28,892 nt of DNA from a virus (taxonomy: Duplodnaviria; Caudoviricetes), in IMG/VR virus record IMGVR_UViG_3300037423_000178, positions 1 to 28,892 of that record. One strand, written 5' to 3'. The stretch's first letter is position 1, and each line of letters begins with the position of its first letter. The notes beneath the pieces are model-generated. The model saw only the letters and a program-made list of their open reading frames with translations. It did no database searches and had not been told where the DNA came from. Position numbers and translations under genes: made by a program. Shown here one piece after another: positions 1-28,892 of the stretch.

Positions 1-2
1 AG

Positions 3-233
3 CCTTACCAGATTCAGGTCGAGGCAACGCTGACCAATGCGGACGCCCTCGCGGCGTCCATTCCGGGGCTCGCTGCCCGGATCAATGGAGGCATTGCCCT
101 GCCGACCGAGGAGGCCGCGTCTATCCACATCGACAACATCACCATTCCGCTTGAGGACTTGGAGCAGATCAAGACGCTTGAGGAATTCCTCAACATGCTC
201 CGCGTCCGTTCCCGACAGGGGGTCACTCGCTAA
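3..233 (+). CDS. C-terminal end of probable tape measure protein (partial)
   Basis: Open frame PYQIQVEATLTNADALAASIPG...IHIDNITIPLEDLEQIKTLEEFLNMLRVRSRQGVTR* ends in TAA overlapping the next ATG (TAATG); lies directly before the minor tail genes. Confidence 0.6.
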   Translation, partial: PYQIQVEATLTNADALAASIPGLAARINGGIALPTEEAASIHIDNITIPLEDLEQIKTLEEFLNMLRVRSRQGVTR

Positions 234-2689
234 TGCCAACGTTCATTAGCGCGCCCAAGGCGCCGACTAACGTCACCGCCACGCGCAATGACGACTCGCA
301 GGCTCACATCACGTGGACCCGAAACCCTGAGTCGGACAGGCCGTACGACTCCCAGCGCATTTCGCGCTGGGACAATGTCTCCAACGCCTATGGCGATGAG
401 ACCACGCTGAGCGGCACCGATAACGACCGCAACGCCCCGATGGGTGCGAACCGGCGTTATCGGTGGCGCGTCCGCGCCAAGAACGAGGTTGGGTTCTCCG
501 ACTTCGGCTACTCCAATTACCTGCAGACGACCCCCGGCGATCCCTATTCGCCCTCGGTCACGTGGACCTCTCCGACTTCGGCGGTGGTCCAGTGGGGTAT
601 TGGCGCGACCGGCAATGGCTACGTCTACACGACCGAGATTTTCGTCTCGGTCAATGGCGGTGGCTGGACCCTCGTCGCTGAGGTCGGCGCTGGCGTAGGT
701 GCGTGGGGCCACTCGGGGATGACTCCCGGCTCCACGTACCAGTACCAGATTCGGCACAAGTCCACGGTCAGCGGCACGCTCTACTCGGCTGGGGTGTTCA
801 CCCCGGTCCTCCTCATGGAGGCTGCGCCCGCTGCGCCTTCCGCCTTCACGGCGGTGCGCAATAGCGACGCCTCAATGACGCTGACGTGGACCGACAACCC
901 CACGGGCTCCGCGCCCTACAGCAGTCTCACCGTGCAGCGGTGGGACAGCGCCTCCAATGCGTGGAACACGGTTGGCGAACTGTCGCCTACGGCGACCAGC
1001 CTGACCGACACGGGCGCGGTTGCGAACCGCAAGTACCAGTACCAGATCAGGGCTAATAACCGAGGCGGCTCCTCGTCTTGGGTCCAGTCTGGATTCCTCT
1101 ACACCACGCCGTCCGCCCCGCAGAATGCGACGGCGCTCTACGTCACCGGCAACTCGATCACGGTGTCCTGGGAGAACACGGCCACCTACACCGAGTACGG
1201 GCTGCGCGTGCAGCCGGTCAAGGATGGGGTCGCGCAGACCACGGTCACCGTTGCGGGTGGCTCGACTTCGTACACGCTGACGGGCGCTGACCCGCTCGCC
1301 ACGTACACGTTCAATGTCTGGGCCGTCAGCAATGTCGGGGCTCTCGCCTCGGCTTCGGTGGCGTCGAATCAGGTCAGGGGCGCGGCTGCGCCCAATGCGC
1401 CGATCAATGTGAAGTTGGCTGAGGGTGAGCCGATTGACTTCACGCGGTCGGTGACCCTGGTCTGGCAGCACTCGCCGTCGCAGGACATGTCGGCAATGAC
1501 GAAGTTCCAGTACCGGCACCGTCCGGCTGGCAACCCGGCATGGACCGAGAGTGCCATCATCACCGGCACCGATCCCAGCAAGGCCACTCCGTGGCCTGCT
1601 GGCACCTACGCCAATGGCACGGCGGTCGAGTTTCAGGTGCGCACGTGGGGTATCCACGCGGACCCGTCGCCCTACTCCGCGACGAGTACGGCGAACGGAC
1701 GCACCACGCCGACGCTCTCCCTGAACACCCCGACCACGGTGCAGTCAACCTCTCTGCTCATTGTCGATTGGGACTTCCTGCAGGCGCAGGGTTCCGTGCA
1801 GGCTGAGTGGAAGTTCGACGTTACGGACACCACGACCGGGACGCTCATCGAGTCTCGGCAGGGCGCGGACACCACGGACCACGTGACCGTCAATGCGGCG
1901 GTCGAGCACCTGCACAACTACGAGTTGGTGCTGTCCGCCCGCGCGGCCAACGGAATGTGGACGGACGTTCTCACCAAGTCCTTCTCCGCGTTCTTCGTCC
2001 CGCCCGCTGAGTCGGTGCTCATTGCCGACCTCGACTCCGAGTCGGGAGCGGTGGTCCTGACGCTCAACCCCACCGAGGACGACGGCGGCGTTACGACGCG
2101 GCCTGCTGTCAGCGTGGACATTGAGCGGCGCCTCTGGGACGAGGAGACCGAGAGTTACGGGGACTGGGAGCCGGTAGCCCTGGGGGTCGCGCCCAACGCG
2201 ACCATCATTGACACCACCGCCCCGATCCACGGCGAGGGTGAATACCGCGCGACGACGTACTCCGATGCGCCGTCGTCCTACCGGCCTCCGGCCAATGTGC
2301 CGCCCTCGACGGTTGAGGCTCAATGGGCCTACCTCTCGGCTGGCCCGCAGTTCGATGTGGTCGCTCGCATGTGGGCGAACATCAATGTCAGTTGGACGAG
2401 CAGCCGGTCAAAGGCTCTGCACTACTTCGCAGGCCGGAAGCGCCCGGTTATCTACTCGGGCGAGAGCGCCGAAAAGACGCTCAACGTCACCGGCATCATC
2501 ACCGCTGGCGACGGGGCCTCCCCGCCCAAGCGATGGATTTACCTCGCTCAGCAAGAGGGTGCGGTTCTGTTCCGCGCTCCGGGTGGCGTCCGCATCTATG
2601 GGTCGCTGTCCGAAGTCAGCATCGAGCGCATTGAGAACACGGACCTGCATCAGGTCTCGTTCAATATTCAGGAGGTCTACAAGCCATGA
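233..2689 (+). CDS. Minor tail protein with tandem fibronectin type III domains and a possible distal-tail-like C-terminus
   Basis: 818 aa with repeated FN3 signatures (APxAPTNVTA...ITW...YRWRVRAKN, YQYQIRANN, YTFNVWAVS, VEFQVRTWG); first gene after the tape measure. Confidence 0.8.
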   Translation: MPTFISAPKAPTNVTATRNDDSQAHITWTRNPESDRPYDSQRISRWDNVSNAYGDETTLSGTDNDRNAPMGANRRYRWRVRAKNEVGFSDFGYSNYLQTTPGDPYSPSVTWTSPTSAVVQWGIGATGNGYVYTTEIFVSVNGGGWTLVAEVGAGVGAWGHSGMTPGSTYQYQIRHKSTVSGTLYSAGVFTPVLLMEAAPAAPSAFTAVRNSDASMTLTWTDNPTGSAPYSSLTVQRWDSASNAWNTVGELSPTATSLTDTGAVANRKYQYQIRANNRGGSSSWVQSGFLYTTPSAPQNATALYVTGNSITVSWENTATYTEYGLRVQPVKDGVAQTTVTVAGGSTSYTLTGADPLATYTFNVWAVSNVGALASASVASNQVRGAAAPNAPINVKLAEGEPIDFTRSVTLVWQHSPSQDMSAMTKFQYRHRPAGNPAWTESAIITGTDPSKATPWPAGTYANGTAVEFQVRTWGIHADPSPYSATSTANGRTTPTLSLNTPTTVQSTSLLIVDWDFLQAQGSVQAEWKFDVTDTTTGTLIESRQGADTTDHVTVNAAVEHLHNYELVLSARAANGMWTDVLTKSFSAFFVPPAESVLIADLDSESGAVVLTLNPTEDDGGVTTRPAVSVDIERRLWDEETESYGDWEPVALGVAPNATIIDTTAPIHGEGEYRATTYSDAPSSYRPPANVPPSTVEAQWAYLSAGPQFDVVARMWANINVSWTSSRSKALHYFAGRKRPVIYSGESAEKTLNVTGIITAGDGASPPKRWIYLAQQEGAVLFRAPGGVRIYGSLSEVSIERIENTDLHQVSFNIQEVYKP

Positions 2690-3843
2690 TCGTGATTCCC
2701 AATGGTCTGATCCGCAATGACGCGGTTGACCCGCTCAGGGACCCGACCTACGGGAATCGCATCCAGTCGTTCACCTACCACCTGCTCGACAGCAATGACG
2801 ATCACGTCGGCGCTCTCGATCAGGTGCTAGGTGGAACGCTGGAATGGCACGCCAACGCCCCCATTCATGGGGGCGGCAAGATCACCGTGGTCCAGAAGGG
2901 GCGAGACAACCACAACTGGCTCAAGCGCCGCATCAAGATCGTCATGCACATTGACGGGATTGGGGACACGCCGCTCGGCGTGTTCATCCCCTCGGCTCCG
3001 GTCGAGAAGTGGGACGACATGAACCTCACTCTCGAAATGGACCTGCTCGACAAGTGCTCGGTCCTCGACAATGACTACGTTGAGCACACGTACTCCGCGC
3101 CCGAGGGCGCGAATGTGACTGACCGGGTGCGAGACCTCATCACTTCTACCGGCGAGAATGCCGGTTCCATTACCGACTCCAATGCCACGCTAAACAAGGC
3201 GATGGCGTGGGACGCGGGCACGTCCAAGTTGCAGATCATCAATGACCTGCTGGACGCGGCCAACTACTTCTCCCTGTTCGCGGACGGCGACGGACGCTTC
3301 CGGGTCGAGAAGTACCGGCTGCCGAAGGACCGCCCCAATGAGCACTTCTTTAGCGATGGCTTCCAGTCCATCTACCTGCCGGAGTTCGATTACGAGAAGG
3401 ACATTTACTCGGTCCCCAACAAGGTCATCCTCGTCGGACAGGGCAGCGGCACGAATGAGGCTCCGGTTGCGGTAGCCACCAACACGGACCCGAACTCGCC
3501 GTACTCCCGCCAGTCGCGGGGCCGCTGGATTACCGACGTGGTTTCCGGTGTCGAGGTCGCGGGTGACGACCTGACCGAAGCAGAGATTCAGGCCGCGCTC
3601 GACAGCAAGGCCGAGAAGCGGCTGCACGAACTCACCAGCCCGACCGGCACCATCACCATTGACCACGCTCCCCTGCCCTGGCTGGGCATCAATAGCGCGG
3701 TGCGCTTCAAGCGCATCGAGGCCGACATTGACATTCGGGCCGTGGTCACTTCGACGCAGATCAACCTCGACCCGATGGAACTGCAGCGCACGGAATTGCA
3801 GGAGGTTGTCGAGATTGCCAATCAGGAATGGGTGGAGCCTTAA
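2686..3843 (+). CDS. Minor tail protein (baseplate hub/Tal-like)
   Basis: 385 aa, ATGA overlap with the upstream gene; LGVF..., WDAGTSKLQIINDLL, SLFADGDGRF, VPNKVILVG, NTDPNSPYS pattern typical of actinophage minor tail proteins. Confidence 0.75.
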   Translation: MIVIPNGLIRNDAVDPLRDPTYGNRIQSFTYHLLDSNDDHVGALDQVLGGTLEWHANAPIHGGGKITVVQKGRDNHNWLKRRIKIVMHIDGIGDTPLGVFIPSAPVEKWDDMNLTLEMDLLDKCSVLDNDYVEHTYSAPEGANVTDRVRDLITSTGENAGSITDSNATLNKAMAWDAGTSKLQIINDLLDAANYFSLFADGDGRFRVEKYRLPKDRPNEHFFSDGFQSIYLPEFDYEKDIYSVPNKVILVGQGSGTNEAPVAVATNTDPNSPYSRQSRGRWITDVVSGVEVAGDDLTEAEIQAALDSKAEKRLHELTSPTGTITIDHAPLPWLGINSAVRFKRIEADIDIRAVVTSTQINLDPMELQRTELQEVVEIANQEWVEP

Positions 3844-7677: not shown

Positions 7678-7989
7678 TCAGGCGTTCGCGTCCTGCTTGG
7701 ACTTCTCAATGTCCTCGACAGTGGCGGTGCGCTTCCGACCGCGACGACTGCTCGTGGTCTTCGCTGCGGCCTGCGCCTGGGCGAGGGCAGCGGGCTTGCG
7801 ACCCCGACGACGCTGAGTCGCCCGAGCGACCGCGAGGTACGGCGCGAATGCCTGCCGCATCTTCGCCGCGTTCTCCTCGGTGAGGTCAATCTCGAACTGG
7901 TCCCCGTCCATGCCGAACGCAATCGTCTCGGCAGCCCCCTCCGTTCCGTCGAGGTCATCGACCAGAACGATGTTTACCTTCTGAGCCAT
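7678..7989 (-). CDS. lsr2: Lsr2-family protein (dimerisation domain with atypical C-terminus)
   Basis: MAQKVNIVLVDDLDG...ETIAFGMDGDQFEIDLTEENAAKMRQAFAPYL matches the Lsr2 N-terminal domain; AAAGGGG RBS. Confidence 0.88.
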   Translation of the reverse strand: MAQKVNIVLVDDLDGTEGAAETIAFGMDGDQFEIDLTEENAAKMRQAFAPYLAVARATQRRRGRKPAALAQAQAAAKTTSSRRGRKRTATVEDIEKSKQDANA

Positions 7990-12553: not shown

Positions 12554-12758
12554 GCACTTCCGCGCCAACCTGGGCGAAAAGAATGGGGCGGTCGAGGTCG
12601 ATAGGTATTGCGGGGGCGAGGTCTTCCTTGAGGTCTTCGACTACTCGCGGTTCGACGGCGAGGTCGGCACGGCTTGCGTGTCGCTCACCGTCCAGCAGGC
12701 GCGCGACATTGCCAACTCCCTGCTGCGCGCCGCCGCCGAGGAGGCTGTCAATGTCTGA
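12546..12758 (+). CDS. Hypothetical protein
   Basis: GGAGG RBS, ATG at 12546 overlapping the upstream gene end. Confidence 0.7.
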   Translation: MSEHFRANLGEKNGAVEVDRYCGGEVFLEVFDYSRFDGEVGTACVSLTVQQARDIANSLLRAAAEEAVNV

Positions 12759-13323
12759 GGAGAGCACCCGCTTCATTGTTGGGCTCGACCTGTCACTGAC
12801 CGCTGCTGGTCTGGCTGAGTACAACCTTGACCACGAGCACTTCGCGGTCGAGACCTACGGGACCAAGGGCAAGCGCACCGACAAGTACGCACAGCGCGGG
12901 GGTCGCCTGCAGACGATGGCTGACCACATCATTGCGTGGGCTACAGCGGGTTCTAGCGATCCGGTGATGGTTGTGGTCGAGGGACCCGCGCTGGGCTCTC
13001 AGAACGGCTCATTCTTCGACAGGGCTGGCCTCTGGTGGCTGGTCGTGTCCGGGCTGCAGGCACGCGGTATCCGCGTGCTCGTCGTTCCGCCGAAGACTCG
13101 GGCCAAGTACGCGACCGGCAATGGCAATTCCGGCAAGGACGTTGTGCTCGCTCATGTCATTGAGCAGTACGCCGACTTCATGGACAACTGCTCGATCCGC
13201 AATGACAACGAGGCCGACGCCCTGGTCCTCGCTGCAATGGGCGCTCGCTACATCGGTGAGCCGCAGGAGGAGTCGCTGCCGGAGGGCAACCTCGCGGCAA
13301 TGGCCGGAGTGGAGGCGCTGTGA
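12751..13323 (+). CDS. RuvC-like Holliday junction resolvase
   Basis: IVGLDLSLTAAG, VVVEGP, KYATGNGNSGK, DNEADALVLA; true start ATG 12751 after GAGGAGG. Confidence 0.88.
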   Translation: MSEESTRFIVGLDLSLTAAGLAEYNLDHEHFAVETYGTKGKRTDKYAQRGGRLQTMADHIIAWATAGSSDPVMVVVEGPALGSQNGSFFDRAGLWWLVVSGLQARGIRVLVVPPKTRAKYATGNGNSGKDVVLAHVIEQYADFMDNCSIRNDNEADALVLAAMGARYIGEPQEESLPEGNLAAMAGVEAL

Positions 13324-13694: not shown

Positions 13695-13879
13695 CGCATT
13701 ATCGACCGAGCCCTCGCGTGGCCTACTGCGACGAGGCCCCCGAAGGGGAGCCGTGCTGCGACACCTGCCACGAGGAGGCTGACCAGGGCGTCTACCCGCT
13801 CATTGACATTGAGGTCAACGGCGTGGCGTGGATTCTCTGCTGCGCTCGGCTGCGGAACCTTGAGGCGGCGGCGACATGA
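13691..13879 (+). CDS. Small Cys-rich hypothetical protein
   Basis: 62 aa with CCDTC and CC; ATGA overlaps at both ends. Confidence 0.65.
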   Translation: MTHYRPSPRVAYCDEAPEGEPCCDTCHEEADQGVYPLIDIEVNGVAWILCCARLRNLEAAAT

Positions 13880-13953
13880 TCGACTTCCTCATTGGAATCC
13901 TGGCGGGCATTGCCGGAATGCTGACCGTGCTGCGGTTCAAGGGCGTGTTGTGA
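13876..13953 (+). CDS. 25-aa membrane peptide
   Basis: MIDFLIGILAGIAGMLTVLRFKGVL*; ATGA overlap upstream and GTGA overlap downstream. Confidence 0.6.
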   Translation: MIDFLIGILAGIAGMLTVLRFKGVL

Positions 13954-14378
13954 GTTGGCGGGATAAGGCCCGCCCCCAGCAGGGGGCGGATCACGAACTG
14001 CCCCTTGAGGACGTGCTGTCGCATTACGGCGTGCGGCACGGCTCTCGTCGGAAGCAGATGGTCAGTTGCCCCATTCAGGTGGATGACAGCCGACCGTCAT
14101 TGAGCATCGACCTCGACAAGCAACTCTGGAAGTGCCATGCGTGCGGAAAGGGCGGCGACGTTTGGGTCCTAATTCAGGAAATGGAGGGGATTGCAGATTA
14201 CGGAGGAGCAAGACGATTCGCTGAGACCACTTTCGGAATTGCAGATAGCGACTCTGGACGAGGCGCTGATGCAGTACGAGGCGGCTCTCGGGGAGGACGA
14301 CGAGGCCGTTCGCTTTCTGCTGGCTCGCGGTCTGGACAAGGTGACCGTAAGTACGCACCGTCTTGGCGTCGTAACTGA
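13950..14378 (+). CDS. DNA primase, zinc-binding (CHC2-like) part
   Basis: CPIQVDDSRPSLSIDLDKQLWKCHACGKGGD; probable GTG start at 13950. Confidence 0.8.
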   Translation: MSWRDKARPQQGADHELPLEDVLSHYGVRHGSRRKQMVSCPIQVDDSRPSLSIDLDKQLWKCHACGKGGDVWVLIQEMEGIADYGGARRFAETTFGIADSDSGRGADAVRGGSRGGRRGRSLSAGSRSGQGDRKYAPSWRRN

Positions 14379-14871
14379 GGACTGCCTGCCGGAGCACCGT
14401 CGCTTCATTGGCTGGCTGGCAATCCCCTACCTCGGCCTCGATGGGAGGCCCGTGCAGATCAGGTTCAGATGCCTGAGAAACCACGAGCACGTCGGACACG
14501 GCAAGTACATGACATTGGAGGGAGACCCGGCACGGGTCTTCAATGTCCAATCCATCATTACCGCCGACTTCGACATTCACATCACCGAGGGCGAGGTTGA
14601 CGCAATGATCCTGACCAAGTTGGGATACCCGGCCATTGCCATTCCTGGCGCGTCCGGCTTCCAATCCCATCACCGGCGAATGCTGGCTGGGTTCGGCAGG
14701 GTCTTTGTCTGGGGCGACCCGGACGAGGCAGGCGCTCAGTTCACCGCAAAGATCACGCGATGGATGGGCACGGCATTGGGCGTCCGGCTCAAGCACGGAG
14801 ATATCAACGAAACCTATGTGGCCGAGGGCGAGGACGCGATTCACGCGGCTCTTGCCAAGGCCATTGTTTAG
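14191..14871 (+). CDS. DNA primase, catalytic TOPRIM part
   Basis: FLLARGL, LAIPYL, IRFRCL, KY, ITEGEVDA, WGDPDEAG, DIN motifs. Confidence 0.85.
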   Translation: MQITEEQDDSLRPLSELQIATLDEALMQYEAALGEDDEAVRFLLARGLDKVTVSTHRLGVVTEDCLPEHRRFIGWLAIPYLGLDGRPVQIRFRCLRNHEHVGHGKYMTLEGDPARVFNVQSIITADFDIHITEGEVDAMILTKLGYPAIAIPGASGFQSHHRRMLAGFGRVFVWGDPDEAGAQFTAKITRWMGTALGVRLKHGDINETYVAEGEDAIHAALAKAIV

Positions 14872-15171: not shown

Positions 15172-15353
15172 ATGATCTGCCCCCTGTGCTGGCCGAGGCA
15201 TTGCGCGCTCTCCCCGAGCACGTCGCTCAGCGATTCATCGAGCACGTCCGAGAGGACACATCTGCGGATTACCTCTCTGACTGGCTCCGTCGTGCGGGTC
15301 ATCCAGTATCCGCCACCACCATCAAGAGATACCGGAGCGCACTGAATGGATGA
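15168..15353 (+). CDS. Small HTH-like protein
   Basis: SADYLSDWLRRAGHPVSATTIKRYR; coupled to the phosphoesterase gene. Confidence 0.65.
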   Translation: MNDLPPVLAEALRALPEHVAQRFIEHVREDTSADYLSDWLRRAGHPVSATTIKRYRSALNG

Positions 15354-16530
15354 CCTGTTTGAGGAACTGCTGTCCCGCCCCACGGGGCGGGCAGTAGTCC
15401 CCACTCTCGATGACGATAAGGAATACACGTCGTCAATCTCAATGGTGGGCAACAAGGTCGAACTCTCAATGCACCTGCCCGAGGGGCAGGCCAATGAGGG
15501 AACGGGCCTCGCCTTCCTTGAGGAGGAGGGGCTGAACCCTGACGAGTGGGAGGCAACGTCCTTCTCCAAGTCGCGGTACGGCTCCGAGGAAAAGCCGATG
15601 GAGGCCGTGAAGTTCGGCTACAAGCGGAAGGTCATTGACAAGCCGCTTGCCGTACCGATGGACGACCTGATCCGGGCGGTTGAGAACTACGAGCCGCCAG
15701 TCAAGATCGAGACTCGGGTTAATGGCACTGAGGTTGGCGTTGTCGTCGGCATCGGTGACATGCAGTTCGGCAAGATCGACGGCGACGGGCCGGAGGGCAC
15801 GCTGACGCGGACCCTCTTTGTCATTGCCATGATCCGCGCTGAGATTCAGGAACTCTCAAAGCGGTACACCATCACCCACATTCATGTGGTGTGGCTGGGC
15901 GACCACATCGAGGGCTTCGTGTCTCAGGGTGGGGCCAACACGTGGCGCACTCAGTTGACGCTCAATGAGCAGATTCGTCTCACTCGTCGGGTGATGATGA
16001 AGATGCTTGAGTCCATCGCTGATCTGGCGCCGCGCGTGACAATGGCTGCCGTTCCTGGCAACCACGGTGAGGCTGTTCGTTTCAATGGCAAGGGCATCAC
16101 TCGTTACGACGACAGTCACGACACCGAGTCACTGATTGCCGTTGCCGAGCGGGCTGGCGATAGGCCGGAGGTCTTCGGGCATTGCGAGTTCTATGTGCCC
16201 GACAATGACGAACTGCTCGTGTTCACCGAGGTCCAGAACACCATCATCATGCAGGGCCACGGTCACGCCCACTCCCCCGGTAAGCATTTCGATTACTGGG
16301 AGGGGCAGGCGTTCGGCAATCCCCTCGCGTACAAGGCACACGTCCTCATGGAGGGCCACCTTCACCACGAGGAGGTTGACACACGGGGATACCGCACGTT
16401 CATTGGCGTTCCGGCGTTGGAGTCGGAGTCAACGTGGTATCGCCACAGGACCGGCGTCACGGGAGCACCCGGCGCATTCATTGGAATCGTGAAAGACGGG
16501 CTCATGCCCGTCAAGCACATCATTCGATAG
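15346..16530 (+). CDS. Metallophosphoesterase (calcineurin-like/Mre11-like)
   Basis: GDMQFGK, LGDHIEG, VPGNHGE, HGH, GHLHH motifs. Confidence 0.88.
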   Translation: MDDLFEELLSRPTGRAVVPTLDDDKEYTSSISMVGNKVELSMHLPEGQANEGTGLAFLEEEGLNPDEWEATSFSKSRYGSEEKPMEAVKFGYKRKVIDKPLAVPMDDLIRAVENYEPPVKIETRVNGTEVGVVVGIGDMQFGKIDGDGPEGTLTRTLFVIAMIRAEIQELSKRYTITHIHVVWLGDHIEGFVSQGGANTWRTQLTLNEQIRLTRRVMMKMLESIADLAPRVTMAAVPGNHGEAVRFNGKGITRYDDSHDTESLIAVAERAGDRPEVFGHCEFYVPDNDELLVFTEVQNTIIMQGHGHAHSPGKHFDYWEGQAFGNPLAYKAHVLMEGHLHHEEVDTRGYRTFIGVPALESESTWYRHRTGVTGAPGAFIGIVKDGLMPVKHIIR

Positions 16531-17353: not shown

Positions 17354-19006
17354 ATGTCAGAAGCACTCTCCACCTTTGCGAACACGATCCTTGAGGGCAA
17401 GTACCTCAAGGGCGAGGAGAGTGACTGGCGGGACATTGCAGGGCGCGTGGTGGGGGCCGTCGTCGGCCCCCACTTCCCTGAATTGGTGGACCCCATCACT
17501 GAGGCCATTGCAAACCGGGAGTTCATGCCGGGTGGCCGCTACCTTGCCAATGCGGGGTACTCCAACATGCTCAACAACTGCTTTCTCTACCGGGTGGGTG
17601 ACTCCAAAGAGGAGATTGCTGACTTCTACCGGAAGGGGACCGTCACCGGAATGACGGGCGGCGGCGTAGGCGCTGTGTGGTCGGACCTCCGGCCCCGTGG
17701 TGCAGCCGTCAAGTCCAATGGCGGCACGAGCACTGGCCCGTGTGCGTTCATGTACTCGTTCAACGAGATTGGCCGGGGTGTCGTCAATGGCGGCTCGCGG
17801 CGAATGGCGATCTGGGCGGGGCTGCACTGGTGGCACCCTGACGTGTTCGAGTTCATGGCGCTCAAGGATTGGGACGAGGACATTGTTGCCCGCAAGGCTG
17901 CGGACTTCTCTGCCTACGCCTCAATGGACATGACCAACATCAGCGTCATTCTGGACGACGACTTCTTCACGCTCATCAATGGCGACGCTGATGAGGTCGA
18001 GATTCAGACGGCGTGGGGCACGATCACCGTGGACCGGGACTGGGCCGAGCGCGTGTACTGGACTGCCGTCGAGAAGATGCTCAATGGTGGCGAGCCGGGA
18101 TTCTCCGTGGACCTGGGCGAGAACAAGTTCGAGAACCTGCGGAATCCCTGCTGCGAGATTACGTCCGAGGACGACTCGGACGTGTGCTGCCTCGGCTCAA
18201 TCAACATGGCCCGCATTGACACCATTGAGCGCATGGCTAAGGTGACCGAACTTGGCACGGTGTTCCTGCTCTGCGGCACCCTTGAGTCCGACGTTCCGCA
18301 CGAGGAAGTCCGGGTCACCCGCGAGAAGAACCGGCGCCTCGGGCTGGGCCTGATGGGCATTCACGAGTGGCTGATTCAGCGGGGCTATTCCTATGACCCC
18401 AACGACGAACTCGCTGAGTGGCTTGACGTGTGGCAGTACGCCTCGGATGGCGCTGCCGCGCACTACTCCTGGGAGTTGAGCATCAGCCAACCCAAGAAGG
18501 TGCGAGCCATCGCACCGACCGGCACCATCGGCATCATTGCCGAGACGACCACGGGAATTGAGCCGCTGTTCGCGGCTGGGTACAAGCGCCGCTACCTCGA
18601 CAATGGCGTGTGGAAGTACCAATACGTCGTGGACGCCACGGCTCAGCGAATGGTGGAGCAGTACGGCATTGACCCGGACGAGATTGAGACGGCGTACGAC
18701 CTTGCCAATGACCCTGGTCGGCGGCTGAGGATGCAGGCGTTTGTTCAGCAGTTCGTGGACCACGCAATCTCCTCGACGCTGAACCTGCCGAGCAAGGCGG
18801 ACCAGTTATTCACCACCGAGGAGTTCGGCTACCTCCTGCTCAATGTGCTGCCGCGTCTGCGGGGCGTCACGGTCTACCCGGACGGCTCCCGTGGAGGCCA
18901 GCCGCTCAACGTCGTGTCCTATCAGGAGGCGACGGACTGGGCTGGCTTCGAGTACGAGGAGGTCGGGCTCGACCAAGCGTGTGTCGGCGGTGTCTGCGGG
19001 GTGTGA
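17354..19006 (+). CDS. nrdJ: Ribonucleotide reductase, probably class II (B12-dependent)
   Basis: FMPGGRYL, NNCF, NPCCEI, CCLGSINM, LGLGLMG, IAPTGTI, ISSTLNLP, C-terminal CVGGVC; 550 aa with no adjacent beta subunit. Confidence 0.88.
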   Translation: MSEALSTFANTILEGKYLKGEESDWRDIAGRVVGAVVGPHFPELVDPITEAIANREFMPGGRYLANAGYSNMLNNCFLYRVGDSKEEIADFYRKGTVTGMTGGGVGAVWSDLRPRGAAVKSNGGTSTGPCAFMYSFNEIGRGVVNGGSRRMAIWAGLHWWHPDVFEFMALKDWDEDIVARKAADFSAYASMDMTNISVILDDDFFTLINGDADEVEIQTAWGTITVDRDWAERVYWTAVEKMLNGGEPGFSVDLGENKFENLRNPCCEITSEDDSDVCCLGSINMARIDTIERMAKVTELGTVFLLCGTLESDVPHEEVRVTREKNRRLGLGLMGIHEWLIQRGYSYDPNDELAEWLDVWQYASDGAAAHYSWELSISQPKKVRAIAPTGTIGIIAETTTGIEPLFAAGYKRRYLDNGVWKYQYVVDATAQRMVEQYGIDPDEIETAYDLANDPGRRLRMQAFVQQFVDHAISSTLNLPSKADQLFTTEEFGYLLLNVLPRLRGVTVYPDGSRGGQPLNVVSYQEATDWAGFEYEEVGLDQACVGGVCGV

Positions 19007-22401: not shown

Positions 22402-22529
22402 GCGGACAGCCTACCTGGGCAACACGCCGCTGACCTGCAGCAATGCGGGTGTCGGATGGGACCTCAATGCGAACCTGTTGTCCATCGGGTACCATTTGCG
22501 GGTCCAGTCTAGCGGAGGAGAGCCCTGCG

Positions 22530-23978
22530 TTGCGAGCCCTGATCTATACCCGTGCATCCCTTGACCGTACTGGCGAGGGGAAGTCCAACTCCCGGCAGCG
22601 GGAGGAGTGCTTGCGCCTCACCGAGTACAAGCGGTGGGAGGTCATTGAGGTCAATGGACAGCCGTCCATTGACGATGTGTCGATCAGCGCCTACGGGGAG
22701 AAGGACCGCCCCGGCTGGAACAAGGTACTCGCAATGATCGAGGCGGGCGAAGTTGACGTGGTGGTCGCTTGGCACCTTGATCGGCTGACCCGGAACATGG
22801 CCGACCTTGAGCGATTGATCCTGCTCTGCGAGAAGCACAACGTCTCGGTCGCCACCGCCACGGGGGACATTGACCTGACGAATGACACGGGTCGGATGGT
22901 GGCTCGCATCCTCGCGGCTGTGGCTCGGCAGGAGGTCGAGCGCAAGGCGGCAAGGCAGCGGCTCGCGCACGTCCAGCGCCGACAGGAAGGACGCCCGTGG
23001 GCGGGCGTCAAGATGCTGGGCTACTCCCGTACTGGCGAGGTCATCGAGGAGGAGGCAGCCGCCATTCAGGCGGCTGCTGCTGCGGTGCTTGAGAAGGACG
23101 TGTCACTCGCTGAGGTTGGGCGCCAATGGACCGAGAAGGAACTGCGCTCGCCGTACCAAGCAATCAGGGATGACCAAGGCAATGTCATCGGGTTCAAGCC
23201 CTGGTCTCCGCGCGGGGTGAGGAACGTGCTGACCAACCCCCGGCTGGCCGGATACATCACGCACGATGGCGTGGTCCTGGGCAAGGGGAATTGGGAGCCG
23301 ATCATTGACGACACGACGGCGACGCTGCTGCTCTCGAAGTTGAATGCGCCGGAGCGGACGAACGGCAAGAGCAAGGCGGGTCGGCGTGCTGCCAACCTGC
23401 TCACCGGCATCGCGCGTTGCGGTATCTGCGAGGGCACAATGCGGGCCGCTGTGAAGCGGGGGCGGGAGACGTACATCTGCGGCGACTGGCACGTCTCGGT
23501 GCCACGCGAGGACGCGGACAATCTGGTCAAGGTGTCGCTCGGTCTGGCCGTCCAGTCCATGCTTCCCGGCTCGGTGATTGCGCTGCCTGCCGAGGAGGAT
23601 TCCCCGGAGGCCATTGCCGCCGAGGTCGAGCAACTGCGAGAGCGCCAGGGCAAGATCGCAAAGTCATTCGCCGCTGGCCTGATCGAGGAGGCGCAGTTCG
23701 ATGGCGCCATTGCCGAGATTGCCGAGAGGATCACGGCACTGCAGGACAAGGTGACCCACCCCTCGGAGGACGTGGAGTACAAGCGGGCAATGCTCAAGGC
23801 GTACGAGGAATTCAATACCGACGACCTCGCCGGTCAGCGTTCGGTCCTTGAGCGACTGACCAAGGTGACCATCAATCCCGCTGGGGTGGGCAAGCGCATG
23901 AGCGCGCGCAGTCAGGTCAATGTGCAGGTCCGTCAGCGCATAGGCCAGACCGAGAAGTGGATTCAGGCATACCCCTAG
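22530..23978 (+). CDS. int: Large serine integrase
   Basis: ALIYTRAS catalytic Ser motif, DRPGW, WHLDRLTR, recombinase domain, LLTGIARCGICEGTM Zn ribbon, coiled coil; GGAGGAG RBS before TTG 22530. Confidence 0.93.
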   Translation: MRALIYTRASLDRTGEGKSNSRQREECLRLTEYKRWEVIEVNGQPSIDDVSISAYGEKDRPGWNKVLAMIEAGEVDVVVAWHLDRLTRNMADLERLILLCEKHNVSVATATGDIDLTNDTGRMVARILAAVARQEVERKAARQRLAHVQRRQEGRPWAGVKMLGYSRTGEVIEEEAAAIQAAAAAVLEKDVSLAEVGRQWTEKELRSPYQAIRDDQGNVIGFKPWSPRGVRNVLTNPRLAGYITHDGVVLGKGNWEPIIDDTTATLLLSKLNAPERTNGKSKAGRRAANLLTGIARCGICEGTMRAAVKRGRETYICGDWHVSVPREDADNLVKVSLGLAVQSMLPGSVIALPAEEDSPEAIAAEVEQLRERQGKIAKSFAAGLIEEAQFDGAIAEIAERITALQDKVTHPSEDVEYKRAMLKAYEEFNTDDLAGQRSVLERLTKVTINPAGVGKRMSARSQVNVQVRQRIGQTEKWIQAYP

Positions 23979-24020: not shown

Positions 24021-24161
24021 GTGGTGATGTGGTCCTTCCCCAAGTACCCATCACCGATTCAATTGTGTCATGCCCGTTAATCCCGTAGGCGGGAGTAGGA
24101 GCCCTCTCGCTTTCTGTCGTAGTTCCCACCCTTTGCGAGCGGACATTGCCGCCGCTCACCG

Positions 24162-24212: not shown

Positions 24213-24220
24213 GAGTCTTG

Positions 24221-24421
24221 CTATGCCGCTAGCGCGGCAATGATCTTGTCGGCCATCACTTCGGCCCGACTCTTGTTGTGCAGGCATTCGCCATCGTACG
24301 TGTGATCCTTCCACCCGTCTTCGGTTGGGCAGTCGTCACCGTCGTACGCCTCGGAATAGATGCAGCACCCACACCCGAGCAGGCCGGTCTCATTGATCGC
24401 CTTAACAATCAGGTCCCTCAT
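24221..24421 (-). CDS. Cys-rich hypothetical protein
   Basis: MRDLIVKAINETGLLGCGCC...; GGAGGG RBS; TGATG overlap. Confidence 0.6.
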   Translation of the reverse strand: MRDLIVKAINETGLLGCGCCIYSEAYDGDDCPTEDGWKDHTYDGECLHNKSRAEVMADKIIAALAA

Positions 24422-24993: not shown

Positions 24994-25108
24994 GACTCAC
25001 CCCCGCAATGAGGAAGCCCACCGCGCGCGTCGCGTCAGCGGCAATGCGCGTCACGTCGGACGCGATGAGCACCGGGACAGCGGCAAAGAACCGAACGGGA
25101 TTGCGCAT
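24971..25108 (-). CDS. Small hypothetical protein (45 aa)
   Basis: MRNPVRFFAAVPVLIASDVTRIAADATRAVGFLIAGVSRGERYRY*; TGATG overlap. Confidence 0.5.
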   Translation of the reverse strand: MRNPVRFFAAVPVLIASDVTRIAADATRAVGFLIAGVSRGERYRY

Positions 25109-25473
25109 CACGCACGCCCCTTCTTCTCGTCGGCAATGATGGCCTCGGCAGCCGCGCGGAACGCGGCCTCGTCGTCAGACTGAGTGGCCGTACCCCGGCC
25201 CTTGCCCTTGCTCACGGTGGCCTTCGTCACACCATTGCCGTGCCGCTCATTGAGCAGGTCAGCCACGGCCTGAGCCTCGGTCACGCGCTTCTCAACGCTG
25301 CCCTCGGTGAACCACGGGAGGTAGTCAATGCCCACCGCCCGGAGCAGGGGACCGGCAGCGTGGTAGCAGCCGTCAACGGTGTCGTAGACGCCGACCTTCT
25401 TGCCGTTGTCATTCACCTTGACGATGAAGCGGGCGGCGTCCTTGTCGGTGCTGGGGGTGATGGTCAGGGTCAT
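25108..25473 (-). CDS. Hypothetical protein
   Basis: GAGAGGA RBS, ATG 25473, first gene after the repeated promoter. Confidence 0.7.
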   Translation of the reverse strand: MTLTITPSTDKDAARFIVKVNDNGKKVGVYDTVDGCYHAAGPLLRAVGIDYLPWFTEGSVEKRVTEAQAVADLLNERHGNGVTKATVSKGKGRGTATQSDDEAAFRAAAEAIIADEKKGRA

Positions 25474-25504
25474 GGTGGATTCCTCTCTCTCACTTGTTGC
25501 ATGA

Positions 25505-25535
25505 AGCCTAGCACACACTTGTTCGTTCGTGTCAA
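25505..25535 (-). promoter_or_regulatory. Sigma-70-type promoter, copy 1, with CAAGTG motif in the spacer
   Basis: TTGACA-cgaacgaacaagtgtgtgc-TAGGCT with TGn extended -10. Confidence 0.75.
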
Positions 25536-25536
25536 C

Positions 25537-25737
25537 TCAGTAGACGTTCAGAATGCTGGTCGGCATCCCTCCCCATCGAGAGACGGCCATACCTGCAGCG
25601 ACTTGCGCGGCAACGCGCCAGTCGGGGAATGCAATGCGCGAGATAGTGACTCGGCTCCGGTGACTGGCAATGATGCCGCGCTTTACGTCGTCGTGGTCAG
25701 CGGTAATCACATCAAAGGTCCAGTTCTCCGGGTCCAT
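25537..25737 (-). CDS. Hypothetical protein
   Basis: AAAGGA RBS; 66 aa. Confidence 0.6.
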   Translation of the reverse strand: MDPENWTFDVITADHDDVKRGIIASHRSRVTISRIAFPDWRVAAQVAAGMAVSRWGGMPTSILNVY

Positions 25738-25740
25738 TGG

Positions 25741-25899
25741 TCAGTCCTTTCCGTGTACCGTCCGGTCGTGCTTGCGAATTGACCGCTTGAAGAACGGCCA
25801 GACAATGCCGAGGATGAACACGTCAACGACGATGATGTTCGTGACCTCGACAAGCATGTGGGCTGGGTCGCCCAACAGGTGGGTGTACTCCTCAAACAT
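25741..25899 (-). CDS. Small membrane protein
   Basis: MFEEYTHLLGDPAH...IIVVDVFILGIVWPFFKRSIRKHD; GAGAGGAG RBS. Confidence 0.7.
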   Translation of the reverse strand: MFEEYTHLLGDPAHMLVEVTNIIVVDVFILGIVWPFFKRSIRKHDRTVHGKD

Positions 25900-25924
25900 T
25901 GGCGCTCCTCTCATTGCAGTAGTG

Positions 25925-25967
25925 AAACAAGAAAGGCACCCGCCCCTCCGATGATGGGGCGGGTGCC
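25925..25967 (-). terminator. Intrinsic terminator
   Basis: GGCACCCGCCCC/GGGGCGGGTGCC 12-bp stem followed on the minus strand by TTTCTTGTTT. Confidence 0.8.
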
Positions 25968-25982
25968 AATCCAATTGCGCTA

Positions 25983-26387
25983 CTAGGAACCGGGCTCGCT
26001 CTGGCTGGTGCGCAGGTCAATGTCCGGCACAATCTCCTCCGGCTTGAACGTCACCTTGTAGTGGTTCGGGTCGGCGTACGCGCCGTCGATCTGCTCCACG
26101 AAGTAGGACACATTGTCCGAGAGTCCGAGGAAGTGCTTCTTGTACTCGTGGTCGCCGGTCTTGCAGGTGACCTCCAACTGGTTGCCCTCGTCGCTGATCG
26201 AGCACGCGCCCTCAATGGAGAGCAGGTACTTGTCGGTGATGCCATTGAAGAACACCACGCGACGGTCGATCTTGAAGTTGTCGGCGTCCTTGCTCAGGTT
26301 CTCCGACACCACGTCGGCGTCATCCGAACAGGCGCTCAGTCCGATGAGGCCAAGGGCCAGGGCCAGGGCGGCAATGATCTTCCGCAT
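25983..26387 (-). CDS. Phage lipoprotein
   Basis: Signal peptide with lipobox LSAC; ADVVSENLSKDADNFKIDRRVVFFNGITDKYLL..EG.CS pattern seen widely in phages. Confidence 0.8.
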   Translation of the reverse strand: MRKIIAALALALGLIGLSACSDDADVVSENLSKDADNFKIDRRVVFFNGITDKYLLSIEGACSISDEGNQLEVTCKTGDHEYKKHFLGLSDNVSYFVEQIDGAYADPNHYKVTFKPEEIVPDIDLRTSQSEPGS

Positions 26388-26626
26388 CAGGCCACCAGCG
26401 CGGCGACGCGACCGGCAATGCGGTCGGCACGAGCAGCCTGCTCAAGCGCCTCGTCGCGCAGAGCGATCATGCGCTCGACCTCGGCCTGCGCCTCGGCGGC
26501 AATGGCGTCGTGGTCCTCGGCGACGGACTGCAGGTGCAGGGACACGGACTCGAACTGCTCAATGGCAGTGTCGAGCATTGCTGTGGACTGCGCGACGCGC
26601 GCAGCCAGGGTCTGCTTCTTCTTCAT
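26387..26626 (-). CDS. Coiled-coil hypothetical protein
   Basis: GAGGAG 8 nt before ATG; TGATG overlap with the lipoprotein gene. Confidence 0.65.
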   Translation of the reverse strand: MKKKQTLAARVAQSTAMLDTAIEQFESVSLHLQSVAEDHDAIAAEAQAEVERMIALRDEALEQAARADRIAGRVAALVA

Positions 26627-26651
26627 TGGCATTGCTCCTCTCACATGGGAA

Positions 26652-26678
26652 GGGAGGGGCGCATCGCGCGCCCCTCCC
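26652..26678. terminator. Intergenic GC hairpin, possible terminator
   Basis: GGGAGGGGCGC-ATCGC-GCGCCCCTCCC; weak U-tract. Confidence 0.55.
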
Positions 26679-26692
26679 AATGGGTCAGACGG

Positions 26693-27112
26693 TCAGAGGT
26701 AGTAGCCGACGCCAGCGGGCTCCGGCTCGACGGCCTCGTCCGGGGTGACGCCCAGCCGCTCGAACAGCGCATTGAGCGCGTCCTCGGCCTGCTTCTGCAT
26801 CGCCCGCTCAGCGGCGGCACCCACGGCCTCGTTGAAAGCGGTGATGCGCGGCTGCAGGATCGACAGCAGGCGGTCGAAGACCATGTCGAAGGACGCGCCA
26901 GCGACCTCAGCCGGGACGCCGCTGGCCTCGCCAGCGCGCACCGTCTCGTCCCGCAGGTCAGCGACGGACTCGGACACGAGGCCGGTCACGGTGATGGCGG
27001 CAGCCTCGATGCCCGCGAGCACCTGCACGTCGGTCAGGTCCGCGACCTGCTCGAACAGCGGGTTCACGTCGGCGGCAAGGCGGTCGGTCTCGGGAAGCAG
27101 GTAGTTGGTCAT
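26693..27112 (-). CDS. Hypothetical acidic helical protein
   Basis: GAGGGG RBS before ATG 27112. Confidence 0.7.
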   Translation of the reverse strand: MTNYLLPETDRLAADVNPLFEQVADLTDVQVLAGIEAAAITVTGLVSESVADLRDETVRAGEASGVPAEVAGASFDMVFDRLLSILQPRITAFNEAVGAAAERAMQKQAEDALNALFERLGVTPDEAVEPEPAGVGYYL

Positions 27113-27170
27113 TGGTAATTCCCCTCTCACTTGTTCAATGTTGGAAGTATTAAGTTGTGGGATGGTGCGA

Positions 27171-27572
27171 TCAGAACTGGTTGACGATTCCGTTGAAAGC
27201 CCGCTCGTAAGCCGGTCCCTCGATGACGGAATCAATGAGGCCCTGAATGGTGACACCCAGGAATTGGGCCACCGCCCTCGCCCCATCCCCGCAGCCCTCG
27301 GCGTAGAGGGCGAGGGCAGCCTCGGTGGCAGCCTCGCCCTGGTCGCTGGCGACCATCGTCGCCCGGAGAATTGCCTCCTGCACCAGCAGGTTCACGCACG
27401 CCGCTCCGAACAGGAACGCTTGCACGTTGTCGGCATTGACCTCGGCCTTGATTGCCTCGGCGTACTCGTGAGCGAATGTCCCCAGCGGGGGCATGTCGCT
27501 CGCGTTGTCGGAGTTCTGCGCAGCCTCGATCATCTTCACCACGTAGTCCATCGGTTGCGGCGTGTCAGGCAT
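27171..27572 (-). CDS. Hypothetical protein
   Basis: GAGAGGAG RBS; first gene after promoter copy 2. Confidence 0.7.
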   Translation of the reverse strand: MPDTPQPMDYVVKMIEAAQNSDNASDMPPLGTFAHEYAEAIKAEVNADNVQAFLFGAACVNLLVQEAILRATMVASDQGEAATEAALALYAEGCGDGARAVAQFLGVTIQGLIDSVIEGPAYERAFNGIVNQF

Positions 27573-27603
27573 GTCGTTCTCCTCTCGGTTGTTCGATGGC
27601 TAG

Positions 27604-27634
27604 AGCCTAGCACACACTTGTTCCATCGTGGCAA
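27604..27634 (-). promoter_or_regulatory. Sigma-70-type promoter, copy 2, with CAAGTG motif in the spacer
   Basis: TTGCCA-cgatggaacaagtgtgtgc-TAGGCT; last 20 nt identical to copy 1. Confidence 0.75.
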
Positions 27635-27635
27635 C

Positions 27636-28187
27636 TCACTTGCACTTTGGATCGTGTCTGCAATCTCCGGCCCTAATGCGAGCACCCCAACACGGCCACG
27701 GCTGATCCGCCTTGCGCTCCATTTCGCGGACGCGCTCGGCCCTCTCCTCGGCTTGGCGCTGGAACTTCTCAATGGACGCACGCAACTTCTCGCGCCGCCT
27801 CTCGTCGGCCTTTGCCTCCAATGCGGCGTAGTAATTCCGACGCTCGCTGTGCCACGCGGCAGGGGTACCGAAGAATGTGGGCACTACCCACGTCCTCAGT
27901 CGGTCCCCCTGCGCGCCGTGACTCAGAGCGGCAGCCGCCTCATTGGCTTTGGTGTCCGACTCAAAGAGCCCCAGGCACACCTTGACTGCCGCCTCGTGAT
28001 CCGGGGGAATCTTGCCGTGCTCCGGTGTCTCACACACCTGACCAACCACGGCCCACTTTCCCCGCTCCTCAATGATTCCGAGTGCAGTGTCAAGCGCCGC
28101 ATTAGCGGCGCCGTCCAGCGTTTCGTACTCCGCGTCGAGAGTGTCGGCCATTGCCGCGACGTGCTTCTTTGTCCACGACAGGCCCAT
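27636..28187 (-). CDS. Hypothetical protein
   Basis: 183 aa with coding-like bias; C-terminal coiled coil and Cys cluster. Confidence 0.7.
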   Translation of the reverse strand: MGLSWTKKHVAAMADTLDAEYETLDGAANAALDTALGIIEERGKWAVVGQVCETPEHGKIPPDHEAAVKVCLGLFESDTKANEAAAALSHGAQGDRLRTWVVPTFFGTPAAWHSERRNYYAALEAKADERRREKLRASIEKFQRQAEERAERVREMERKADQPWPCWGARIRAGDCRHDPKCK

Positions 28188-28190
28188 TGA

Positions 28191-28562
28191 CTACGCCGCG
28201 TCCGAGAGGGTGACCTCGATGACCTCGTACTCGCTGCTCTGCAGAGCGTCGGGCAGGTCGCCGTACTTGATCGAGTCGTCAATCCCGTTGCGAATCTCCT
28301 CGTCGGTCCAGTCCGCACCCTTGAGCCCGTAGCGGTAGGCGTCGAAGCCACTGATCCGGTACGTCTCGGTGACCACGCGCTGCACCTGCACGTCCACGTC
28401 CGGCACGGCAATGCCGATCTTGGCGAACGTCTCCTCAAGCACGTGGCACAGGTCGTGCTCGACTGCAGCCTCACCCGCAATGACGATGACTCGATCAATG
28501 AACTTCGCCTGCTGCTCCTTGAGCGCCGCGAGTTCCGCCTCGACCTCAGCCTTGGTTGCCAT
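28191..28562 (-). CDS. Hypothetical protein
   Basis: TAATG overlap with the DUF3310 gene; GGAG RBS. Confidence 0.7.
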   Translation of the reverse strand: MATKAEVEAELAALKEQQAKFIDRVIVIAGEAAVEHDLCHVLEETFAKIGIAVPDVDVQVQRVVTETYRISGFDAYRYGLKGADWTDEEIRNGIDDSIKYGDLPDALQSSEYEVIEVTLSDAA

Positions 28563-28789
28563 TATTCCCACTCCCCTTTCCGTCCCTCACGTCGGGCAAT
28601 CTCCCGACTGAGGTATTGCTTTGCCTTTTTCAGGTCCTCGATTGGCTTGCCTTTGCGGTCACACCGCGCGACGTACTTGACGACATTGCCCAAGCGGTAG
28701 TTCAAGTCCCACTCCTCGATGGCATCAATGACCTCGATGCGCGAGTGGGTGTAGTGCTCGGGCACTGCCACCGGATCGTGCTCGCTCAT
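28562..28789 (-). CDS. DUF3310 family protein
   Basis: DPV..P.HY...IEVIDAI...GNVVKYVAR..RKG..IEDLKKA..YL.REI. Confidence 0.85.
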   Translation of the reverse strand: MSEHDPVAVPEHYTHSRIEVIDAIEEWDLNYRLGNVVKYVARCDRKGKPIEDLKKAKQYLSREIARREGRKGEWE

Positions 28790-28890
28790 GCCACGAGCGC
28801 CATTGCGACCGGCTCGTCCGGCAGGTCGTGCATGTCGAACCAGACCTTGGCCTCGTACTCCTCGCCCCAGATTGAGTAGGGGTGCATGAG
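28786..28890 (-). CDS. C-terminal end of a hypothetical protein (partial)
   Basis: ...LMHPYSIWGEEYEAKVWFDMHDLPDEPVAMALVA*; ATGA overlap with the DUF3310 gene. Confidence 0.5.
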   Translation of the reverse strand, partial: LMHPYSIWGEEYEAKVWFDMHDLPDEPVAMALVA

Positions 28891-28892
28891 GA

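Follow-up and report, generated by a model that had tools for sequence, protein, structure and literature searches.

What keeps a five-base palindrome in large excess throughout the DNA of a phage that otherwise removes palindromes? The question is raised by positions 1 to 28,892 of the IMG/VR record IMGVR_UViG_3300037423_000178, a stretch of 28,892 bases (hereafter the window) in which the pentanucleotide CAWTG, that is CAATG or CATTG, recurs from end to end. CheckV puts the completeness of this record at 57%. The window is the right part of a temperate, siphovirus-like actinophage genome, about 40% of which lies outside it. The same IMG/VR contig extends 4,627 bases further upstream (L096:1-4627), which gives 33.5 kb in total; where we write of the analyzed genome without naming this extension, we mean the window record alone. 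We find that the genome-wide CAWTG excess is real and acts at the level of DNA. Our reading, to which we assign a probability of roughly 45%, is that selection, weak at each site but cumulative, holds CAWTG close to saturation by favoring many copies of the recognition site of a DNA-binding or DNA-modifying protein.

An exact count gives 260 CAWTG in the window (133 CAATG and 127 CATTG), with 4-13 in each 1-kb bin and no bin empty. Base composition predicts 37.0, corresponding to a 7.0-fold excess. A first-order Markov model expects 51 sites, and 100 dinucleotide-preserving shuffles yielded 49.9 ± 7.25 with a maximum of 67. We also shuffled synonymous codons within genes. The 29 genes of one such analysis contain 193 sites against 72.9 ± 6.4 after shuffling (z = 18.8), and 34 genes contain 213 against 78.7 (z = 19.8), which is the largest deviation among all 5-mers. 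As a null this errs on the side of caution: it leaves the frequent use of AAT and ATT intact, although that usage is largely a product of the motif. Every called gene has sites, at densities of 3.2-20.4 per kb and about 9 per kb overall, and segments without gene assignment hold 34 sites in 4,764 bases (7.1 per kb). The field continues upstream, with 33 CAWTG in the first 4,640 bases of L096. The window thus shows the many-fold, genome-wide excess beyond composition and codon usage by which highly iterated palindromes are recognized.

An earlier reading of the window, made from the sequence only and with counts taken by hand, had proposed that CAWTG is iterated throughout, and the counts above bear this out. 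Its figures for the first three kilobases (9, 8 and 11) and for positions 26200-26700 (10 sites) agree with the exact counts; in the integrase gene the excess holds as well, with 14 sites where 13 had been reported. That reading had named disappearance of the enrichment under a codon- and dinucleotide-preserving null as grounds for giving up the idea, and the enrichment persists under such nulls. A further claim, that the motif surrounds many start codons, proved overstated. All eight starts listed there do carry the motif, but CA precedes only 6 of the 24 ATG or TTG starts, which fits a general pressure and indicates no signal specific to start codons.

The excess depends on the whole motif and not on codon identity. 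Most coding sites in the 29 genes (147 of 193, or 76%) have the form xxC-AWT-Gxx, in which AAT or ATT is the central codon. Asparagine is encoded by AAT in 70 of 89 cases when the codon is flanked by C and G (C_G context) and in 45 of 179 cases elsewhere (odds ratio 11, p = 4e-17). For isoleucine, with ATA left out, ATT is used in 77 of 102 C_G contexts and 81 of 226 others (odds ratio 5.5). The ribonucleotide reductase gene, from which the sequence-only reading had drawn its example, gives the same picture with exactly the counts reported then: AAT is used in 8 of 11 C_G contexts and in 1 of 12 others. We compared all 16 NNY codon families and found a preference for T in the C_G context only for AAY and ATY (0.76 each), with the other 14 families at 0.45 or below. 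Because the effect is limited to these two families, general avoidance of CpG at codon junctions is excluded. A following G by itself produces a partial preference for T, at 0.39 and 0.54 compared with 0.18 and 0.27. A mild T preference in the C_G context is also visible for TTY, TAY and GAY codons.

The two other reading frames respond in the same way. Serine, proline, threonine and alanine codons that precede methionine end in A in 23 of 38 cases, compared with about 9% overall (odds ratio 17.5), and glutamine or histidine before cysteine or tryptophan (TGN) is encoded by CAA or CAT in 13 of 18 cases. The base 5' of AATG is C in 84% of occurrences, versus 46% for the base 5' of AACG. In all three frames, approximately 60-79% of the positions that can be reached by synonymous change are occupied. 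Positions 1, 2, 3 and 4 each shift toward the motif when the remainder is present (the center from CAS to CAW, and position 2 from NCG to NCA), and all five motif positions respond. Outside the motif, T at -1 and A at +1 account for about 34-40% of bases, with no correlation between the flanks (chi-square p = 0.23), so that the core is five bases long; an extended motif was rejected, since these flanking preferences are weak and independent of each other. Two one-off words, CAAGG/CCTTG (101 versus 71.0 expected, z = 5.1) and CAAAG/CTTTG (30 versus 17.0, z = 3.4), are also above the synonymous-shuffle expectation in coding regions, and the protein that reads the motif may tolerate some such variants.

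We considered whether any signal beyond ordinary sequence bias is needed. The excess might result from codon bias, from CpG avoidance at codon junctions, from a single C-to-T process or from an assembly or sequencing artifact, and the predominance of AAT- and ATT-centered sites, the partial effect of a following G and the elevation of AAT and ATT in all contexts speak in favor of such an account. It does not explain why the excess survives codon and dinucleotide shuffles. Codon or codon-pair bias was rejected because the effect occurs in all three frames and in unassigned DNA and is absent from 14 of the NNY families, in line with the earlier contention that CAWTG is a DNA-level signal and not a matter of codon usage. 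The sequence-only reading had also suggested a motif-directed C-to-T process acting on CAWCG. As the sole cause this fails, because the center, position 2 and position 1 also respond and because CAWCG/CGWTG is barely depleted, at 0.85-1.02 of the synonymous-shuffle expectation. A context-dependent mutation signature, such as deamination of methylated cytosine at CAWCG, was rejected for the same reasons, given that several positions shift and the precursor word is not depleted. An artifact was rejected as well: the reading frames are intact, and the first 20 kb are covered by Logan contigs of soil or rhizosphere origin from four independent runs, whose listed pieces differ at 0-1 positions each, with one difference tabulated. 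Parts of the phage are present in eleven runs, none of them listed as RNA. We therefore give practically no credence to an explanation without a special signal.

The arrangement of the sites provides a second constraint. The two orientations are balanced in the 33.5 kb, at 144 CAATG to 149 CATTG, and do not drift from one end to the other; a runs test is not significant (z = -0.87). Spacing is near Poisson (coefficient of variation 0.86), and the largest gaps, 610 and 558 bp, lie inside the Poisson expectation. The shortfall of spacings below 10 bases results mostly from the fact that sites cannot overlap. A period of 3 is the only one present, and no helical or other spacing period was found across the 29 kb of the window. 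Lack of polarity is what the layout shows. Within the tail genes (L096:2000-4627 and window positions 1-5400) there are long runs of one orientation, with 2-kb bins of 13 CAATG to 1 CATTG and of 0 to 11, which probably reflect asparagine-rich and isoleucine-rich protein segments.

This layout is difficult to reconcile with an orientation-dependent, single-strand signal, either a Chi-like site for a host helicase-nuclease or a T7-type pentanucleotide primase site. We know of no Chi sequence for actinobacterial AdnAB or RecBCD. The Chi site of Bacillus subtilis and the primase sites of T7 are 5 nt long, the same length as CAWTG, and the phage encodes a primase. Phages without recombination modules accumulate host Chi sites (PMC3784561, PMC12315714), and the Chi-rich lambdoid phages and P1 (Bobay 2013; Zheng 2025) likewise carry many copies of a short, host-read word through selection, with codon usage not the cause, according to PMC12315714. 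As described in these sources, Chi is an asymmetric 8-mer that is strongly oriented (20:3 and 32:0), clustered near one end and present at about 0.5 per kb in phages that lack recombination genes (PMC12315714, PMC3784561). CAWTG, in contrast, shows neither polarity nor clustering, reaches 9 per kb and occurs in a phage with its own nucleases and resolvase. We rejected membership in the Chi-enriched class on the basis of the balanced orientation, the presence of 4-13 sites per kb everywhere in this incomplete genome and the occurrence of two exonucleases and a RuvC-like resolvase. Moreover, relatives whose primases are 39-55% identical lack the excess, and a reader of an asymmetric word would have no reason to pick W-centered palindromes, which make up about 3% of 5-mers. 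We consider a single-strand signal very improbable, and the DnaG-type primase is a weak candidate for the reader.

The excess is specific to a lineage. In pooled relatives (68 loci, 1.2 Mb), CAWTG occurs 0.11 times per kb per strand compared with 4.50 in the window, a 41-fold difference, and the relatives' rate scaled to the window length predicts 6.3 sites. This pool left out L001 (self), L073 (a Mesobacillus hit) and L067, L068 and L071 (34-42% identity). Across 72 non-self loci, the ratio of observed sites to those expected from composition ranges from 0 to 1.34. Two of 22 metagenome loci stand out, namely L074 (22 sites in 2,186 bases, ratio 6.8) and L087 (12 sites in 1,550 bases, ratio 5.0). 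Both encode an exonuclease 72% identical to that of the window, and in L074 the third position is T in 9 of 10 C_G contexts. The ratio for L094 is 3.1, but this locus has only 5 sites in 1,290 bases and contains AGCT; the remaining metagenome loci are at 1.9 or below. A set of 80 loci with RuvC-like homologues (47% identity or less) has a median ratio of 0.53 and a maximum of 2.43. Among approximately 174 non-self loci, some of which are the same contigs reached twice, only L074 and L087 share the excess. The relatives thus do not share the excess, a point in favor of the sequence-only reading. Because part of the contrast with relatives is general composition, we take the within-genome odds ratios of 5.5-17.5 as the fair measure of the motif-specific force.

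Comparison with the sister contigs shows that density has been retained in a diverged lineage while individual sites turn over. The exonuclease gene of L074 has 13 sites, and 4 of these are at positions shared with the window. Protein sequence seems to have been affected as well. Asparagine and isoleucine residues that bear the motif are identical to those of relatives in 21-22% of cases, versus 34-35% for other asparagines and isoleucines (counts pooled over many relatives and given without a p-value), and isoleucine is 1.32 times as frequent as in aligned relatives. These values suggest that some sites arose by amino-acid replacement.

The accumulation of CAWTG runs opposite to the treatment of other palindromes. 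Avoidance of restriction sites is found in phages, and the window shows an extreme form of it. The window has no AGCT, compared with 85.6 ± 8.2 occurrences in shuffles and 138 scaled from relatives, and neither L074, L087 nor the first 4,640 bases of L096 contain one. Evasion of an AluI-type restriction system would be consistent with this absence. The window also lacks 35 of the 64 hexamer palindromes, including CCCGGG, CCGCGG, CGGCCG, GCCGGC and GGGCCC (27 expected for each) as well as CGATCG, GTCGAC, GAGCTC, TCGCGA and TGGCCA (16-33 in relatives for each). CCWGG is reduced to 47 copies from the 174 scaled from relatives, with z = -7.7 against synonymous shuffles. So extreme a purge suggests that the phage DNA is not generally protected by modification, and it tilts the likely reader of CAWTG toward a binding or processing protein and away from a protective methylase. 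Other words show the reverse. CTGCAG (20 versus 0.7 scaled from relatives) and CACGTG (13 versus 3.6) are tolerated here and purged in the Streptomyces-phage relatives. The restriction landscape differs from that of the relatives, as does, probably, the host. The combination of abundant CAWTG and missing AGCT is a sharp signature by which the lineage could be binned in soil metagenomes and its host guessed.

Taken together, the force is directional and bears on the whole word, with comparable strength at each of its positions. It takes no account of a site's orientation or location, is specific to the lineage and overrides codon preference in structural and early genes alike. Such a pattern is expected either if more copies bring more benefit or if conversion is biased, and we opt, tentatively, for benefit. 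Each added site would confer a small advantage that increases with the number of copies. Under a simple mutation-selection balance, the odds ratios would correspond to a scaled coefficient of about 1.7-2.9. The reader would be indifferent to orientation, as fits a two-fold symmetric enzyme or a dimeric binding protein acting on duplex DNA, and two-fold symmetry is most likely because so small a share of 5-mers (about 3%) are W-centered palindromes. CAWTG is some 40-fold less frequent in GC-rich relatives and presumably also in the DNA of a GC-rich host, so that a dense array would set the phage DNA off from that of the host.

Several findings weigh against selection for a recognition site. AAT and ATT are 4- to 10-fold above relatives outside the motif too, and GC3 is only 0.80, so that part of the 41-fold contrast reflects general composition. 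CAATG and CATTG are reverse complements of each other, and recognition with two-fold symmetry therefore looks the same as an asymmetric word present on both strands. Searches of the window genes uncovered no lineage-specific methyltransferase, nuclease or DNA-binding gene tied to the motif. By the criterion that Xu et al. (2018) applied to HIP, conservation of sites relative to control words, 10 of 34 frame-matched motif sites are preserved, as are 368 of 1832 control 5-mers (odds ratio 1.66, p = 0.20), in approximately 2.9 kb of alignment with L074 and L087. In these alignments positional conservation is not significant, and a neutral drive would look alike. A host that is itself rich in CAWTG would likewise account for the excess.

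In a neutral drive, methyltransferase-linked or otherwise motif-directed biased repair would fix mutations that complete the motif, and the word would pile up without serving the phage. W-centered 5-bp palindromes are typical type II targets, and a response of all five positions together with turnover of sites and no excess positional conservation is the pattern expected of such a ratchet. Elhai proposes a mechanism of this kind and ties iterated palindromes to cognate methyltransferases (PMC4390886). The mechanism is nevertheless hypothetical even for HIP1, for which Xu et al. favor selection (PMC5861425), and the density of CAWTG is about ten times the level of roughly 1 site per kb at which Elhai's ratchet should saturate (PMC4390886). 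Searches with Pfam, PHROGs and NCBIfam revealed no methyltransferase or modification gene in the window, and no methyltransferase lies in the whole 33.5 kb, with about 40% of the phage genome and the entire host genome beyond this scope. The motif also carries a cost in rare codons and in some amino-acid changes. We regard a neutral drive as unlikely.

The excess could instead mirror the signature of a host, probably not Streptomyces, that is itself rich in CAWTG and to whose word usage a temperate phage has drifted. A serine integrase and a directionality factor mark the phage as temperate, and its tail proteins are more like Arthrobacter and Microbacterium phage proteins than those of Streptomyces phages; the restriction-site profile, with its many CTGCAG and missing AGCT sites, is unlike that of relatives and also suggests another host. 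On the other side, other actinophage contigs from sibling sample numbers show no excess (ratios of 0.21 for L017, 1.34 for L058 and 0.13 for L140). This explanation also names no cause for the bias, and we consider it rather improbable. When genome contigs were scanned with the integrase for a host, only a distant Mesobacillus match was obtained. Viral contigs were likewise scanned with a tail protein, an exonuclease, the RuvC-like protein and a right-end open reading frame; these scans yielded the contig of the phage itself, a single 40% relative in the case of the RuvC-like protein, or nothing.

Which protein might read the motif under selection for a recognition site? The RuvC-like protein is a candidate, since the RuvC consensus ATT|G occurs within CATTG; RuvC canonically cuts at 5'-(A/T)TT|(G/C)-3' (PMC6736871, PMC11466669). 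CAWTG could accordingly represent cleavage sites seeded for the phage resolvase, such that Holliday junctions would be resolved after short branch migration. The canonical cut site is rare in GC-rich DNA, and relatives have 26-fold less ATTG/CAAT. Of 93 related loci, only 6 carry a RuvC-like gene. Homologues are 186-198 aa long, and the close ones, 28 clusters at 59-79% identity on contigs of up to 54 kb, form a distinct group. Seeding predicts independence of orientation, random scatter, turnover and a gain with each added site, and the layout agrees. On the other hand, the consensus is only 4 nt long and degenerate, and the 5' C of the motif belongs to no known RuvC consensus. Other phages that carry RuvC-like genes show no excess, as seen in the 80 loci with homologues described above and in homologue-bearing loci such as L075, L083 and L092. 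To our knowledge, there is no case in which a genome has been seeded for a resolvase. The sole phage RuvC studied, that of bIL67, is relaxed in sequence, cutting at T|(A/G) (PMC3864405), and GC-rich bacteria have adapted the enzyme and not the genome, with T|C for MsRuvC and (G/C)TC|(G/C) for DrRuvC (PMC6736871, PMC11466669). We think it improbable that resolvase seeding explains the field.

The open frame of the RuvC-like gene reaches back to 12583 (246 codons), but the homologues listed, at least 120, are all shorter, at 175-231 residues. Translation probably begins at the ATG of a CAATG, at position 12751. The exact RuvC-like protein is also carried by a 51,230-base contig on record, which indicates that the complete phage genome exists in a public assembly.

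The Lsr2-like protein, singled out by the sequence-only reading as a possible genome-coating reader, turned out to be a weak candidate. It has an N-terminal dimerization domain followed, where the C-terminal DNA-binding domain would normally be, by two AT-hook-like RRGRK stretches. The motif offers only three A/T pairs and no TpA step, which is far from the known Lsr2 preference, and Lsr2-like genes occur in 21 related loci that have no CAWTG excess. The gene occupies the place of the small "DNA binding protein" gene (gp30) of the Streptomyces phage Nanodon.

Genome-wide words are known from other systems. The DNA uptake sequences (DUS/USS) of Neisseria and Haemophilus mark an organism's own DNA, with a benefit that grows with copy number; these are words of 9-12 nt in cellular genomes that an uptake receptor reads, and phages have no uptake process. 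The sequence-only reading had compared CAWTG with HIP1 of cyanobacteria, and as a phenomenon this comparison is apt. HIP1 (GCGATCGC) and the alternate iterated palindromes of cyanobacteria are likewise short palindromic words that are many-fold over-represented in all frames at a cost in codons, and HIP1, like CAWTG, is lineage-specific and disputed in function (PMC4390886, PMC5861425). According to a 2026 abstract, selection and neutral repair drive have been debated as causes of HIP1 for about three decades. The two words differ in other respects. HIP1 is a GC-rich 8-mer of cellular genomes that occurs about once per kb with a 15- to 300-fold excess, whereas CAWTG is a 5-bp phage word with an A/T center, about 9 copies per kb and a 5- to 7-fold excess. 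Elhai links iterated palindromes to cognate methyltransferases (PMC4390886), and for CAWTG none was found in the 33.5 kb searched. The CAWTG field therefore differs from HIP1 and from Chi-rich phages in word, density, symmetry and genomic setting. A literature search at the level of listings, covering over-representation and palindromes in phages, actinophages and Streptomyces phages, retrieved no report of this word or of any short palindrome accumulated in a phage.

Genome-wide iterated words such as HIP1, Chi and uptake sequences offer a rare view of proteins that scan entire genomes. A more specific version of the selection reading, which we think doubtful, is that this soil actinophage lineage labels its own DNA with a pentanucleotide barcode that a phage-encoded protein reads, telling self from non-self by word density. 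Reading of the barcode might, for instance, direct coating, replication, recombination or packaging, or spare phage DNA from a nuclease. If true, the phage would mark its DNA as self through the density of a word and not through modified bases, which would add a new principle to the conflict between phages and hosts. The question is directly testable, because a phage of roughly 51 kb that otherwise removes palindromes is small enough to recode and has few enough proteins to screen individually.

Gene calls and gene order are based on Pfam and PHROGs, and NCBIfam was also searched (Table 1). The tail genes are followed by genes for an amidase and a holin, then by the minus-strand Lsr2-like gene, a repressor-like gene, two exonucleases (matching phrog_466 and phrog_284), a DnaB-like helicase, the RuvC-like resolvase and the two-frame DnaG-type primase. 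Beyond the primase are genes for a sigma-like protein, the class II-like ribonucleotide reductase and the large serine integrase. A right-end block of minus-strand genes includes a VG64-type directionality factor and terminates in a DUF3310 fragment.

Table 1. Coordinates, strand and supporting matches of features in the 28,892-base window.
Feature	Position	Strand	Basis	Remarks
CAATG/CATTG field	1..28892	.		260 sites, about 9 per kb, roughly one per 110 bp
Tail proteins	233-6350		Pfam/PHROGs	
Lsr2-like protein	7678..7989	-	Pfam PF11774, 1.4e-23	
RuvC-like Holliday-junction resolvase	12751..13323	+	phrog_159, 1.6e-41	190 aa
DnaG-type primase, two overlapping frames	13803..14871	+	Pfam Zn_ribbon_DnaG and Toprim_2; phrog_849, 7e-62	zinc ribbon 13803-14378; Toprim part 14191-14871
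MRE11-like exonuclease gene	15346..16530	+		12 CAWTG; marker that led to contigs L074 and L087
Ribonucleotide reductase (RNR) gene	17354..19006	+	Pfam PF02867, 2.9e-53	served as context test
Large serine integrase gene	22443..23978	+	Pfam Resolvase, Recombinase, Zn_ribbon_recom; PHROG integrase, 2.7e-91	14 CAWTG

Among isolated phages, Streptomyces phages in the Arquatrovirinae (Nanodon, for example) are nearest; they share the gene order and have about 50% amino-acid identity in replication genes. The closest isolated phages reach only 51% identity for the exonuclease and 43% for the RuvC-like protein. The weak similarity of the tail proteins is to Arthrobacter and Microbacterium phage proteins and not to those of Streptomyces phages. 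No tRNA genes were found in the window, and for open reading frames of unknown function, Pfam at E 0.1, PHROGs and NCBIfam, together with two Atlas look-ups, gave nothing useful on function.

Positions 23979-28892 lack the DnaE-type polymerase and ThyX genes that Nanodon has there. This segment holds small minus-strand open reading frames without relatives in about 90 related loci, and the end of the window cuts the DUF3310 (nucleotide-kinase-like) gene. The primase of Nanodon (gp40/gp41) has the same two-frame layout as that of the window, which may represent a programmed frameshift or two subunits.

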